Origin: Escherichia coli | GTDB taxonomy: Bacteria > Pseudomonadota > Gammaproteobacteria > Enterobacterales > Enterobacteriaceae | Strand: one strand, 5' to 3' | NCBI RefSeq assembly: GCF_003334765.1 | Contig: NZ_QOWT01000044.1 | Length of the DNA: 26,384 bases | In this document: positions 19,351-24,255 of the stretch, in pieces | How the letters are laid out: each line of letters opens with the position of its first letter | How positions within the stretch are numbered: position 1 is the first letter of the stretch | Translations under genes and position numbers: made by a program | The notes under the pieces: generated by a model | Seen by the model: the letters and a program-made list of their open reading frames with translations, nothing else | Database searches by the model: none | Told to the model about the DNA's origin: nothing

Positions 19351-20049
19351 ATGACCGAAAACGCTGTTCTCCAGTTACGCGCCGAGCGTATTGCGCGCGC
19401 AACACGTCCTTTTCTTGCCCGCGGTAATCGCGTTCGTCGCTGCCAACGCTGTCTTTTGCCAGAGAAATTATGTCTCTGTTCGACAATTACCCCAGCACAA
19501 GCAAAAAGTCGCTTCTGTTTGCTGATGTTCGACACCGAGCCAATGAAGCCCAGTAATACCGGGCGTCTCATTGCTGATATTTTGCCTGATACCGTTGCGT
19601 TTCAATGGTCGCGTACCGAACCCTCGCAGGATTTGCTGGAGTTGGTGCAAAACCCGGACTATCAGCCAATGGTGGTCTTTCCCGCTTCGTATGCTGATGA
19701 GCAACGGGAAGTGATCTTCACACCACCTGCCGGTAAGCCACCGCTGTTTATCATGCTCGATGGTACCTGGCCGGAAGCTCGCAAGATGTTTCGTAAAAGT
19801 CCGTATCTGGATAATCTTCCCGTCATTTCCGTCGATCTTTCCCGGCTTTCTGCCTATCGCCTGCGTGAAGCCCAGGCTGAAGGCCAATATTGTACTGCCG
19901 AGGTAGCCATCGCACTGTTAGATATGGCCGGCGATACCGGGGCGGCGGCAGGGTTAGGCGAGCATTTTACCCGCTTTAAAACACGCTATCTGGCAGGAAA
20001 AACGCAACATCTGGGTAGCATCACAGCAGAACAGTTAGAAAGCGTTTAA
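19351..20049 (+). CDS. tapT: DTW-domain tRNA-uridine aminocarboxypropyltransferase (YfiP)
   Basis: Track ORF trimmed to MTENAVLQLRAERIARATRPF... (232 aa); contains the DGTW motif. Confidence 0.88.
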   Translation: MTENAVLQLRAERIARATRPFLARGNRVRRCQRCLLPEKLCLCSTITPAQAKSRFCLLMFDTEPMKPSNTGRLIADILPDTVAFQWSRTEPSQDLLELVQNPDYQPMVVFPASYADEQREVIFTPPAGKPPLFIMLDGTWPEARKMFRKSPYLDNLPVISVDLSRLSAYRLREAQAEGQYCTAEVAIALLDMAGDTGAAAGLGEHFTRFKTRYLAGKTQHLGSITAEQLESV

Positions 20050-20080
20050 AATCATTCGGTCACTTCTGCGGGAGACCGGT

Positions 20081-22741
20081 ATGAGTCAGCGAGGACTGGA
20101 AGCACTACTGCGACCAAAATCGATAGCGGTAATTGGCGCGTCGATGAAACCCAATCGCGCAGGTTACCTGATGATGCGTAACCTGCTGGCGGGAGGCTTT
20201 AACGGACCGGTACTCCCGGTGACGCCAGCCTGGAAAGCGGTGTTGGGTGTGTTGGCCTGGCCGGATATTGCCAGCTTGCCCTTTACACCCGACCTTGCGG
20301 TTTTATGTACCAATGCCAGCCGTAATCTTGCTCTTCTGGAAGAGCTCGGCGAGAAAGGCTGTAAAACCTGCATTATTCTTTCCGCCCCGGCATCGCAACA
20401 CGAAGATCTCCGCGCCTGCGCCCTGCGCCATAACATGCGCCTGCTTGGACCAAACAGTCTGGGTTTACTGGCTCCCTGGCAAGGTCTGAATGCCAGCTTT
20501 TCGCCTGTGCCGATTAAACGCGGCAAGCTGGCGTTTATTTCGCAATCGGCTGCCGTCTCCAACACCATCCTCGACTGGGCGCAACAGCGTAAGATGGGCT
20601 TTTCCTACTTTATTGCGCTCGGCGACAGCCTGGATATCGACGTTGATGAATTGCTTGACTATCTGGCACGCGACAGTAAAACCAGCGCCATCCTGCTCTA
20701 TCTCGAACAGTTAAGCGACGCGCGACGCTTTGTTTCGGCGGCCCGTAGTGCCTCGCGTAATAAACCGATTCTGGTGATTAAAAGCGGACGTAGCCCGGCG
20801 GCACAGCGACTGCTCAACACGACGGCAGGAATGGACCCGGCATGGGATGCGGCTATTCAGCGTGCCGGTTTGTTGCGGGTACAGGACACCCACGAGCTGT
20901 TTTCGGCGGTGGAAACCCTTAGCCATATGCGCCCGCTACGTGGCGACCGGCTGATGATTATCAGCAACGGTGCTGCGCCTGCCGCGCTGGCGCTGGATGC
21001 CTTATGGTCACGCAATGGCAAGCTGGCAACGCTAAGCGAAGAAACCTGCCAGAAACTGCGCGATGCACTGCCAGAACATGTGGCAATATCTAACCCGCTC
21101 GATCTACGCGATGACGCCAGCAGTGAGCACTATATTAAAACGCTGGATATTCTGCTCCACAGCCAGGATTTTGACGCGCTGATGGTTATTCATTCGCCCA
21201 GCGCCGCTGCTCCCGCAACAGAAAGCGCGCAAGTATTAATTGAAGCGGTAAAGCATCATCCCCGCAGCAAATATGTCTCTTTGCTGACGAACTGGTGCGG
21301 CGAGCACTCCTCGCAAGAGGCACGACGTTTATTCAGCGAAGCCGGGCTGCCGACCTACCGTACCCCGGAAGGAACCATCACTGCTTTTATGCATATGGTG
21401 GAGTACCGGCGTAATCAGAAGCAACTACGCGAAACGCCGGCGTTGCCCAGCAATCTGACTTCCAATACCGCAGAAGCGCATCTTCTGTTGCAACAGGCGA
21501 TTGCCGAAGGGGCTACGTCGCTCGATACCCATGAAGTTCAGCCCATCCTGCAAGCGTATGGCATGAACACGCTCCCTACCTGGATTGCCAGCGATAGCAC
21601 CGAAGCGGTGCATATTGCCGAACAGATTGGTTATCCGGTGGCGCTGAAATTGCGTTCGCCGGATATTCCACATAAATCGGAAGTTCAGGGCGTCATGCTT
21701 TACCTGCGTACAGCCAATGAAGTCCAGCAAGCGGCGAACGCTATTTTCGATCGCGTAAAAATGGCCTGGCCACAGGCGCGGGTCCACGGCCTGTTGGTGC
21801 AAAGTATGGCTAACCGTGCTGGCGCTCAGGAGTTGCGGGTTGTGGTTGAGCACGATCCGGTTTTCGGGCCGTTGATCATGCTGGGTGAAGGCGGTGTGGA
21901 GTGGCGTCCTGAAGATCAAGCCGTCGTCGCACTGCCGCCGCTGAACATGAACCTGGCCCGCTATCTGGTTATTCAGGGGATCAAAAGTAAAAAGATTCGT
22001 GCGCGCAGTGCGCTACGCCCATTGGATGTTGCAGGCTTGAGCCAGCTTCTGGTGCAGGTTTCCAACTTGATTGTCGATTGCCCGGAAATTCAGCGTCTGG
22101 ATATTCATCCTTTGCTGGCTTCTGGCAGTGAATTTACCGCGCTGGATGTCACGCTGGATATCTCGCCGTTTGAAGGCGATAACGAGAGTCGGCTGGCAGT
22201 GCGCCCTTATCCGCATCAGCTGGAAGAATGGGTAGAATTGAAAAACGGTGAACGCTGCTTGTTCCGCCCGATTTTGCCAGAAGATGAGCCACAACTTCAG
22301 CAATTCATTTCGCGAGTCACCAAAGAAGATCTTTATTACCGCTACTTTAGCGAGATCAACGAATTTACCCATGAAGATTTAGCCAACATGACACAGATCG
22401 ACTACGATCGGGAAATGGCGTTTGTAGCGGTACGACGTATTGATCAAACGGAAGAGATCCTCGGCGTCACGCGTGCGATTTCCGATCCTGATAACATCGA
22501 TGCCGAATTTGCTGTACTGGTTCGCTCGGATCTCAAAGGGTTAGGCTTAGGTCGACGCTTAATGGAAAAGTTGATTACCTATACGCGAGATCACGGACTA
22601 CAACGTCTGAATGGTATTACGATGCCAAACAATCGTGGCATGGTGGCGCTAGCCCGCAAGCTCGGGTTTAACGTTGATATCCAGCTCGAAGAGGGGATCG
22701 TTGGGCTTACGCTAAATCTTGCCCAGCGCGAGGAATCATGA
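20081..22741 (+). CDS. patZ: Protein lysine acetyltransferase (Pka/YfiQ)
   Basis: 886-aa ORF MSQRGLEALLRPKSIAVIGASMKPNRAG... with an N-terminal acyl-CoA-synthetase-like region and C-terminal GNAT domain. Confidence 0.95.
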   Translation: MSQRGLEALLRPKSIAVIGASMKPNRAGYLMMRNLLAGGFNGPVLPVTPAWKAVLGVLAWPDIASLPFTPDLAVLCTNASRNLALLEELGEKGCKTCIILSAPASQHEDLRACALRHNMRLLGPNSLGLLAPWQGLNASFSPVPIKRGKLAFISQSAAVSNTILDWAQQRKMGFSYFIALGDSLDIDVDELLDYLARDSKTSAILLYLEQLSDARRFVSAARSASRNKPILVIKSGRSPAAQRLLNTTAGMDPAWDAAIQRAGLLRVQDTHELFSAVETLSHMRPLRGDRLMIISNGAAPAALALDALWSRNGKLATLSEETCQKLRDALPEHVAISNPLDLRDDASSEHYIKTLDILLHSQDFDALMVIHSPSAAAPATESAQVLIEAVKHHPRSKYVSLLTNWCGEHSSQEARRLFSEAGLPTYRTPEGTITAFMHMVEYRRNQKQLRETPALPSNLTSNTAEAHLLLQQAIAEGATSLDTHEVQPILQAYGMNTLPTWIASDSTEAVHIAEQIGYPVALKLRSPDIPHKSEVQGVMLYLRTANEVQQAANAIFDRVKMAWPQARVHGLLVQSMANRAGAQELRVVVEHDPVFGPLIMLGEGGVEWRPEDQAVVALPPLNMNLARYLVIQGIKSKKIRARSALRPLDVAGLSQLLVQVSNLIVDCPEIQRLDIHPLLASGSEFTALDVTLDISPFEGDNESRLAVRPYPHQLEEWVELKNGERCLFRPILPEDEPQLQQFISRVTKEDLYYRYFSEINEFTHEDLANMTQIDYDREMAFVAVRRIDQTEEILGVTRAISDPDNIDAEFAVLVRSDLKGLGLGRRLMEKLITYTRDHGLQRLNGITMPNNRGMVALARKLGFNVDIQLEEGIVGLTLNLAQREES

Positions 22742-22854
22742 GTAAGGTACTGGAAATGTTGACCACTTAATCGGGACTGGTGTTATTATTGCCCGCTTAT
22801 GTCGTCTGCATTGCACAGAGGACCCTTCAATGAACAGAGAAGAAATGCACTGTG

Positions 22855-24210
22855 ATGTTGTCAAAATTTAAGCGTAATAAACATCAACAACACCTTGCCC
22901 AACTACCCAAGATTTCTCAATCAGTTGATGATGTCGATTTCTTTTACGCTCCCGCCGACTTCCGGGAGACGCTGCTGGAAAAAATAGCCAGCGCGAAGCA
23001 GCGCATTTGCATTGTCGCCCTGTATCTCGAACAGGATGACGGTGGCAAAGGCATTCTGAACGCGTTGTATGAGGCTAAAAGGCAGCGTCCGGAACTGGAT
23101 GTGCGGGTGCTGGTCGACTGGCATCGTGCACAACGTGGACGCATTGGCGCTGCGGCATCTAACACTAACGCTGACTGGTACTGCCGCATGGCGCAGGAAA
23201 ATCCGGGCGTAGATGTTCCGGTTTATGGCGTTCCAATCAATACTCGTGAAGCCCTTGGTGTTCTGCACTTTAAAGGCTTTATCATCGACGATAGCGTACT
23301 TTATAGCGGTGCCAGCCTGAACGATGTTTACCTGCATCAGCACGATAAATATCGCTACGACCGTTATCATCTGATCCGTAACCGTAAGATGTCAGACATT
23401 ATGTTTGAATGGGTTACACAGAATATTATGAATGGCCGCGGCGTTAATCGTCTGGATGATGTTAATCGGCCAAAAAGCCCGGAAATCAAGAACGATATTC
23501 GTCTGTTCCGCCAGGAGCTGCGTGATGCCGCTTATCATTTCCAGGGCGATGCCGACAACGATCAGCTTTCTGTAACGCCGCTAGTGGGGCTGGGGAAATC
23601 GAGTCTGTTGAACAAGACCATTTTCCATCTTATGCCTTGTGCCGAGCAGAAACTAACCATCTGTACGCCATACTTCAACCTGCCAGCAATCCTTGTGCGC
23701 AATATTATCCAGTTGCTGCGCGAAGGGAAAAAGGTCGAAATTATTGTTGGTGATAAAACCGCGAATGACTTCTACATTCCGGAAGATGAACCTTTCAAGA
23801 TAATTGGCGCATTGCCTTATCTCTATGAGATCAATCTGCGTCGTTTCCTGAGCCGTTTGCAGTATTACGTCAATACTGACCAGCTAGTGGTTCGGTTATG
23901 GAAAGATGACGACAACACCTATCACCTGAAAGGGATGTGGGTTGATGATAAGTGGATGTTGATCACCGGTAATAACCTGAACCCGCGCGCCTGGCGTCTG
24001 GATCTGGAAAACGCCATTTTGATCCACGATCCGCAACTTGAGCTGGCGCCACAGCGAGAGAAAGAACTGGAGCTGATCCGCGAGCATACCACCATCGTTA
24101 AGCACTATCGCGATCTGCAAAGTATTGCCGATTATCCGGTGAAGGTTCGTAAACTCATCCGCCGTTTGCGCCGTATCCGCATCGACCGATTAATTAGCCG
24201 CATCCTGTAA
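22855..24210 (+). CDS. pssA: CDP-diacylglycerol-serine O-phosphatidyltransferase
   Basis: MLSKFKRNKHQQHLAQLPKISQ... (451 aa from the ATG at 22855; a GTG one codon upstream at 22852 is also possible); phospholipase-D-type HxK motifs. Confidence 0.94.
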   Translation: MLSKFKRNKHQQHLAQLPKISQSVDDVDFFYAPADFRETLLEKIASAKQRICIVALYLEQDDGGKGILNALYEAKRQRPELDVRVLVDWHRAQRGRIGAAASNTNADWYCRMAQENPGVDVPVYGVPINTREALGVLHFKGFIIDDSVLYSGASLNDVYLHQHDKYRYDRYHLIRNRKMSDIMFEWVTQNIMNGRGVNRLDDVNRPKSPEIKNDIRLFRQELRDAAYHFQGDADNDQLSVTPLVGLGKSSLLNKTIFHLMPCAEQKLTICTPYFNLPAILVRNIIQLLREGKKVEIIVGDKTANDFYIPEDEPFKIIGALPYLYEINLRRFLSRLQYYVNTDQLVVRLWKDDDNTYHLKGMWVDDKWMLITGNNLNPRAWRLDLENAILIHDPQLELAPQREKELELIREHTTIVKHYRDLQSIADYPVKVRKLIRRLRRIRIDRLISRIL

Positions 24211-24214
24211 TCAC

Positions 24215-24243
24215 AACCCCGTCCTGTACGGGGTTTGTTTTTT
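24215..24243 (+). terminator. pssA intrinsic terminator
   Basis: AACCCCGT (24215-24222) / ACGGGGTT (24228-24235) stem with 5-nt loop, followed by TGTTTTTT. Confidence 0.75.
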
Positions 24244-24255
24244 GGAGGCCACGTT

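Follow-up and report, generated by a model that had tools for sequence, protein, structure and literature searches.

The closest described systems to the upstream ORF examined here are the overlapping small ORFs (smORFs) of Escherichia coli, a class that comprises pssL, yoaL, baxL, argL and evgL. The source for pssL is Weaver et al. 2019, 'Identifying small proteins by ribosome profiling with stalled initiation complexes' (bioRxiv 10.1101/511675), in which it was predicted from Onc112 and retapamulin ribosome profiling and placed under 'smORFs function as leader peptides'. pssL has the architecture of the class, as it overlaps the 5' end of pssA by 17 nt in another frame. The yoaL-yoaE pair is alike in that an out-of-frame smORF lies over the 5' end of the next gene, a reporter for which falls when the smORF is silenced; it differs in that the yoaL effect is described as strong whereas that of pssL is only 30% (bioRxiv 10.1101/511675). 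baxL-baxA and argL-argF share the same overlapping architecture but act with the opposite sign, since silencing either smORF raises downstream expression (bioRxiv 10.1101/511675).

An upstream ORF that overlaps a downstream start is also found at rseD-rpoE, within the window analysed here, a 26,384-nt stretch of E. coli DNA. According to the annotation, rseD ('rpoE leader peptide', b4725; 10137-10292, minus strand) overlaps the rpoE start by 4 nt. It has 51 codons and ends at the start of rpoE, whereas the 13-codon pssL runs 14 nt into pssA before it stops. Translation of rpoE is reported to be coupled to that of rseD. The leaders trpL, hisL, tnaC, secM and ermCL resemble pssL in being short ORFs that influence a downstream gene. 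Unlike them, pssL has no regulatory codon run, no arrest motif, no alternative terminator structure and no conservation as an ORF. It is not a leader of the attenuation or arrest type.

The ORF at 22830-22871 had been offered as a new lead. It is already known as pssL (b4782, YP_010051192.1, 'protein PssL', NC_000913.3 2722702-2722743), an annotated and experimentally supported mini-gene of E. coli K-12 to which it is identical in sequence, position, frame and length, and the experiment proposed for it is already in print. Positions 20000-24600 of the window are base-for-base identical to NC_000913.3 at an offset of 2,699,872; indels relative to MG1655 lie near both ends of the window. A 501-nt segment around pssL matches K-12 at 100% identity, and every one of the 5426 complete E. 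coli genomes contains it. The pssL feature is carried by the curated K-12 record only and by none of the PGAP-annotated records listed, so those who read the sequence alone will go on rediscovering it, and the practical lesson of the case is one of annotation. In the literature searched, E. coli pssL is mentioned only by Weaver et al. 2019 and by one citing paper. The present comparison adds context to the known gene, namely its restriction to a clade, the position of its Shine-Dalgarno (SD) sequence in a hairpin arm, and the conserved block in which it lies.

The anatomy of the ORF is as originally predicted. AGAGGA is separated by a 7-nt spacer, CCCTTCA, from the ATG at 22830, which opens a 13-codon frame encoding the peptide MNREEMHCDVVKI and closed by TAA at 22869-22871. 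The pssA ATG lies 25 nt 3' of the pssL ATG in the other frame. The pssA ribosome-binding site had been called weak, and it is: the strongest pairing of the 15 nt upstream of the start (-18 to -4) with the 3' end of 16S rRNA is -2.7 kcal/mol and ranks 24 among the 29 annotated window starts scored. By the same measure the pssL SD ranks 15 of 29, about the median. Motifs of this type occur at chance frequency. ATGs with an SD at least as strong as that of pssL number 59 in the window vs 65 ± 12 in dinucleotide shuffles, and ORFs of 8-50 codons preceded by such an SD number 24 vs 40 ± 8. The reality of pssL therefore rests on the published experiments and not on the motif. Features of the region are listed in Table 1.

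Table 1. Coordinates of features in the pssL-pssA region, numbered from the first base of the window.
Feature	Position	Strand	Basis
Putative extended -10 (TGtTATTAT) of the pssL-pssA transcript	22781..22789	+	Sequence
5' stem-loop H1, GUC.UCUG / CAUUGCA loop / CAGA.GAC	22801..22823	+	MFE -8.5 kcal/mol, 93% of ensemble
AGAGGA, pssL Shine-Dalgarno	22817..22822	+	Duplex -5.8 kcal/mol
Conserved mRNA block: pssL, pssA start and first ~27 pssA codons	22825..22935	+	Alignment conservation
pssL CDS, 13 codons plus TAA, MNREEMHCDVVKI	22830..22871	+	Identical to pssL b4782 / YP_010051192.1
Purine tract CAGAGAAG, within AACAGAGAAGAAA, pssL codons 2-5	22835..22842	+	Invariant in 47/47 aligned sequences
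Second in-frame pssL ATG (Met6)	22845..22847	+	Sequence, species comparison
Predicted stem H2: 22847-22860 pairs with invariant CAACAACACCUUGC (22885-22898, pssA codons 11-15)	22847..22898	+	MFE -9.3 kcal/mol
Potential start codons GTG-ATG-TTG; annotated pssA start is ATG 22855	22852..22860	+	Invariant in all aligned species
pssA, phosphatidylserine synthase	22855..24210	+	Pfam PLDc domains on homologues

Because pssA is essential, epitope tagging of pssL was impossible (bioRxiv 10.1101/511675). A chromosomal pssL-lacZ translational fusion, which carried the 5' UTR and first codons under PBAD and was assayed in LB with arabinose, was clearly expressed, and a stop codon at the pssL start diminished its expression (bioRxiv 10.1101/511675). 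In a pssA-lacZ fusion with the whole leader, the same start-to-stop replacement led to 30% lower activity, which the authors suggested was caused by loss of translational coupling (bioRxiv 10.1101/511675). The stop codons in these replacements were 'amber or ochre', the one used for pssL not being specified in the text. A later citing paper describes the effect of pssL on pssA as positive. Published work thus shows initiation at ATG 22830, the ORF having been picked from the Onc112/retapamulin data, and the pssA-lacZ fusion with a mutated 22830 ATG that was suggested with the original prediction is already in print as the 30% decrease (bioRxiv 10.1101/511675).

Two roles had been envisaged for the ORF. 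Delivery of ribosomes to pssA is the one favoured by the drop in pssA-lacZ when pssL is silenced, and the data support a modest positive coupling of pssL to pssA. The effect is small and comes from a single measurement with a heterologous promoter in one medium (bioRxiv 10.1101/511675). The second role is repressive, in that ribosomes on pssL would occlude the pssA start and lower its translation. The geometry permits it, as the pssL frame crosses the pssA AUG, and the overlapping smORFs baxL and argL do act negatively (bioRxiv 10.1101/511675). Occlusion predicts that pssA expression rises on pssL silencing, but the published result was the opposite (bioRxiv 10.1101/511675), and we regard a repressive uORF as barely tenable. 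The broader proposal of a translational control point is not established, since the effect is small and seen in one condition, no signal is known to tune it, and the start codon is missing in 31/80 species even though the bases around it hardly vary.

pssL might instead be a true regulatory leader peptide, with the speed or stalling of ribosomes on it tuning pssA translation; the rare AGA codon might be one such stalling site, and a metabolite or a signal from the membrane one such trigger. It overlaps the start of an essential lipid-synthesis gene, and Weaver et al. group it with leader peptides, as noted above. Output of pssA is also sensitive to initiation-site recognition, as is evident from pssR1, a mutation in the anti-SD of the rrnC 16S rRNA with which expression of pssA is increased (Bartoli et al. 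2017, cited in bioRxiv 10.1101/511675). Yet neither a regulatory codon run nor a known arrest motif is present in MNREEMHCDVVKI. No terminator-like site occurs in 22300-23100, that is, none between patZ and pssA. Rfam searched at permissive thresholds returned no cis-regulatory family, the sub-threshold mir-6 match on the minus strand being due to chance, so that no terminator/antiterminator or SD-sequestering switch was matched by a curated RNA family. A condition-dependent effect of pssL was not found in the literature searched, and the start codon is missing in 31/80 relatives. A regulatory leader peptide is very unlikely.

The pssL-pssA transcript has a putative promoter upstream of the hairpin. 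TTGACC at 22759-22764 lies 19 nt upstream of the putative -10, and the transcription start would fall at about 22795-22799. TAT[T/C/G]AT of the -10 is kept in 80/80 species. A consensus promoter scan of 22300-23100 found nothing; the scan disallows spacers longer than 18 nt, and that of the candidate is 19. The promoter assignment is inferred from sequence. Because no terminator lies between patZ and pssA, read-through from patZ into pssA is also possible. A 44-codon frame bridges the patZ stop and the pssL stop in Salmonella and Citrobacter. In E. coli it is in another frame, and this long bridge ORF was rejected as probably due to chance.

The locus was compared among the 80 closest relatives kept by a genome scan; these are representative Enterobacteriaceae species whose PssA is 87-100% identical, to which Salmonella was added through a member of the PatZ cluster, an indirect route. 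The set ends short of Serratia, Yersinia and Erwinia. A protein search gave the same identity band, and P0046 was E. coli-like and uninformative. Where E. coli has the pssL start, 49/80 species have ATG, 24 have ATA and 5 have TTA, and 2 have a frameshift, so that 31/80 species have no start codon for pssL; ATA is the natural allele of Klebsiella. A usable SD (-5.8 kcal/mol) and the ATG occur together in 23/80, which are all Escherichia, all Citrobacter and one Enterobacter. Salmonella pssL is intact and identical. Enterobacter, Lelliottia, Leclercia and Silvania keep the ATG without the SD, and Klebsiella, Raoultella, Kosakonia, Phytobacter, Trabulsiella and Yokenella have no pssL start. Outside the species with both elements, AGAGGA is replaced by AGACAA, AGATAA or AGAAGA. 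Met6 is ATG in Escherichia, Citrobacter, Intestinirhabdus and one Klebsiella, and ACG, TTG, CCG or similar elsewhere. In Enterobacter mori, TTC in place of TTT at 22866-22868 changes the TAA to CAA and lengthens the frame by 2 codons. Escherichia, Salmonella and Citrobacter keep the full set of SD, two ATGs and stop codon.

Over the 80 species, then, pssL is not conserved as an ORF with start, frame and stop in its relatives. On an NJ tree of pssA positions +120 to +1290 at least 8 changes of state fall on the pssL start codon. The combination of SD and ATG arose in 2 places on this tree from a root with no uORF, a polarity of gain over repeated loss that is tentative because the tree is from a single gene, midpoint-rooted and without an outgroup. 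The complete uORF, SD and ATG together, thus appears tentatively to be a derived feature of the Escherichia-Salmonella-Citrobacter clade. Its absence from many close relatives makes a conserved regulatory role unlikely.

The near identity of the peptide across genera raises the question of whether PssL is a functional 13-residue small protein that acts in trans, PssA and the membrane being conceivable targets. The same identity persists where there is no start codon; xNREE[T/M]HCDVVKI is retained in species in which the pssL start is ATA or TTA. Since this untranslatable 'peptide' is equally conserved, amino-acid selection separable from nucleotide constraint was not found among the 80 species. 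Constraint at the nucleotide level on the pssA initiation region, together with that on the PssA N-terminus, accounts for the conservation of the peptide. PssL is moreover short, acidic and not hydrophobic, no tagged product is possible, and it has no reported function (bioRxiv 10.1101/511675). From these comparisons the peptide is probably not functional in itself, and action in trans is extremely unlikely.

The pssL SD sits in the 3' arm of the predicted 5' stem-loop H1. Equivalent hairpins fold in Enterobacter, Klebsiella, Lelliottia and Phytobacter. When the stem was imposed on alignment A1, 83.8% of cells were paired vs 35-53% with slid partners; these cells are sequences and not independent events, which may be few. 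At one pair, 26 sequences have C-G and 15 have U-A. RNAalifold did not call H1, which was specified by hand for the pairing test. The compensatory change from C-G to U-A turns AGAGGA into AGACAA or AGATAA, which argues that selection kept the stem and not the SD. In window numbering, C22803T with G22821A gives the Enterobacter state, in which H1 is preserved. A CsrA site at AGAGGA, which contains GGA, was considered and rejected, as the motif lies in the stem and not in a loop and is unconserved outside the clade.

Downstream of H1, the pssA start lies in a nearly invariant block. Conservation per column runs at 0.94-1.00 over -30 to +50 of pssA and remains high until about +80. Third-position conservation in the first 15-codon window of pssA is 0.937, rank 1 of 416 sliding windows, vs 0.631 ± 0.045 elsewhere in the gene, where the downstream maximum is 0.718. 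Among degenerate codons for an invariant amino acid, the third base is invariant in 10/20 within the first 27 pssA codons vs 3/244 elsewhere. Of 5426 E. coli genomes, 5418 share an identical 66-nt pssL segment, vs 5088 for the adjacent 66 nt. Among the few variable columns inside the block are those of the Met6 codon and of the last base in the pssL ATG. Because the block extends far past the pssL stop, pssL is not the explanation for it.

Pairing between the purine tract CAGAGAAG and the wild-type anti-SD is only weak, at -2.7 to -2.9 kcal/mol. The tract is probably the real, non-canonical ribosome-binding or standby tract of pssA. We advance as possible, and no more firmly than that, the reading that the ~110-nt block (about 22825-22935), with pssL as a clade-specific add-on, is an undescribed cis-acting element that sets PssA synthesis by non-SD initiation. 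Its components could be the purine tract, the GUG-AUG-UUG cluster and the stem to the CA-rich downstream segment. It is also conceivable that a trans-acting factor targets the block; sRNA regulators of pssA were sought in the literature, and the only matches were false ones (PssaG reporters). With U for C as base five of ACCUCCUUA, the predicted pairing to the purine tract becomes stronger, -6.7 vs -2.9 kcal/mol, and that to the pssL SD weaker. If the cis-element reading is true, the purine tract would be where the anti-SD mutation pssR1 takes effect.

The stem to the CA-rich segment is the predicted H2, which leaves the pssA start triplets mostly paired in the predicted ensemble. RNAalifold recovers H2, and its core pairs are all invariant, so covariation speaks neither for nor against it. 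The stability of H2 is not better than that of shuffles (z -1.05), nor is the folding energy of the whole leader (z -0.25). Changing the pssL start from ATG to TAG is predicted to raise the cost of opening the pssA TIR from 5.18 to 6.46 kcal/mol, and changing it to TAA gives 5.33; for ATA, the Klebsiella codon, the predicted rise is 0.3 kcal/mol. The published pssL stop mutation may therefore act on pssA in cis.

The main rival to coupling follows from this prediction. An ATG might by accident lie 7 nt past a hairpin arm resembling an SD, so that translation of pssL would be incidental, low and of no adaptive value; the 30% lower pssA-lacZ activity would then come from the mutated codon acting in cis on leader folding or standby. 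SD-plus-ATG mini-ORFs occur at chance frequency, as described above, and AGAGGA is kept or lost with hairpin pairing and not with SD function. The pssL start codon, with its repeated changes of state, is among the few variable positions in an otherwise invariant block, and the TAG replacement alone is predicted to add 1.3 kcal/mol to TIR opening. If the ochre codon was used, however, the predicted cis effect is negligible (+0.15 kcal/mol). The initiation peak was also strong enough to be picked from profiling (bioRxiv 10.1101/511675). Retention of the SD, ATGs and stop in the clade and in 5418/5426 E. coli genomes also counts against incidental translation, weakly, as the whole block is invariant. 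We consider incidental translation with a cis effect doubtful, and the alternative that most needs to be weighed.

We think it fairly probable that pssL is a translated uORF that gives pssA a modest boost by coupling, with a nonfunctional peptide, and that it is a clade-restricted layer on an older conserved leader. According to the coupling model the pssA start, GUG-AUG-UUG, would have almost no Shine-Dalgarno and be partly paired through H2 with an invariant, CA-rich stretch that lies 30-40 nt downstream. On its way along pssL from 22830 to 22871, a ribosome would have to melt the 5' arm of H2. A ribosome terminating on pssL has a footprint of ~22854-22881, still over the pssA AUG, its stop being 14 nt past the AUG. 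Termination at that point would leave the site open, with re-initiation or entry of a new 30S subunit within reach. The outcome would be a modest boost of pssA, about 1.4-fold, with about 70% of pssA initiation independent of pssL. The main work would be done by the older conserved leader, made up of the 5' hairpin, the purine tract and the start-codon stem, with the uORF layered on top. Counting against the coupling model, H2 is unchanged in the species that lack a pssL start, and their supply of PssA is presumably sufficient all the same.

PssA carries out the committed step to phosphatidylethanolamine, the main membrane lipid of E. coli, and its place in lipid synthesis makes post-transcriptional control of PssA of interest. 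The main question about pssL is answered in print: it is translated and has a modest positive effect. It is a clade-restricted, weakly acting translated uORF in the deeply constrained initiation region of pssA. The conserved pssA initiation block, with its possible link to pssR1, might be the part that still repays work.

The pssA start codon lies within an mRNA block that is almost without variation across 80 Enterobacteriaceae species. The constancy of the block in these species includes the synonymous sites of pssA codons 1–27. When third-position conservation was ranked in 15-codon sliding windows along pssA, the opening window was first of 416. Among degenerate codons specifying an invariant amino acid, the third base is invariant in 10/20 within the first 27 codons versus 3/244 elsewhere. 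At its start, pssA has three potential start codons in succession, GTG-ATG-TTG, which do not vary in any of the aligned species. The block reaches far beyond pssL, the 13-codon ORF overlapping the pssA start, and is accounted for by neither pssL nor any Rfam family.

Features in the window discussed in the text
Feature	Position	Strand	Basis or remark
rseD, rpoE leader peptide	10137-10292	-	annotated; overlaps rpoE start
mini-ORF MSKVLEMLTT*	22738-22770		overlaps patZ stop codon (ATGA)
TTGACC, 19 nt upstream of -10	within 22759-22789	+	sequence
putative extended -10 TGtTATTAT	22781-22789	+	sequence
hairpin H1	22801-22823		conserved, 5'-proximal
conserved mRNA block	22825-22935		spans pssA start
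GTG-ATG-TTG	22852-22860		at pssA start
yfiS (b4783)	about 26055-26117	+	annotated

Among the matches listed, the pssL feature is absent from PGAP-annotated E. coli records and the curated K-12 record is the sole one with it. Sequence-only scans will therefore go on marking the ORF as unannotated. In length the window equals NC_000913.3 2699873-2726256 of MG1655, but the two are not identical: there are 395 positional mismatches, which are due to small indels close to both window ends, and none within 20000-24600. Thus, the window derives from a close relative of MG1655 and not from the reference. Two further annotated small ORFs, rseD and yfiS, are present. yfiS reportedly originates from the same 2019 study as pssL. 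Its locus tag directly follows that of pssL (b4782) in the curated record.

An additional mini-ORF overlaps the patZ stop codon and is preceded by GAGGA at a distance of 5 nt. One additional T in Salmonella and many Citrobacter brings a GTG overlapping the patZ stop into the pssL frame, so that an open frame of 44 codons connects the patZ stop with that of pssL (4158-4292 in the comparison locus L083). Because the frame is not the same across genera, this arrangement probably arose by chance.

Sequence inspection suggests that the TTGACC and extended -10 elements together are likely the pssA promoter. TAT(T/C/G)AT of the putative -10 is retained in 80/80 species. A consensus promoter scan gave no match to this element, which was overlooked because of its spacer length. 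Since the interval between patZ and pssA lacks a terminator, read-through transcription into pssA is also possible. H1 is located a few nt downstream of the inferred start of transcription. The proposed Shine-Dalgarno sequence of pssL is the 3' arm of this hairpin. One compensatory pair was observed, in which C-G (26 sequences) is replaced by U-A (15 sequences). H1 may serve as a 5' stabilising stem-loop.
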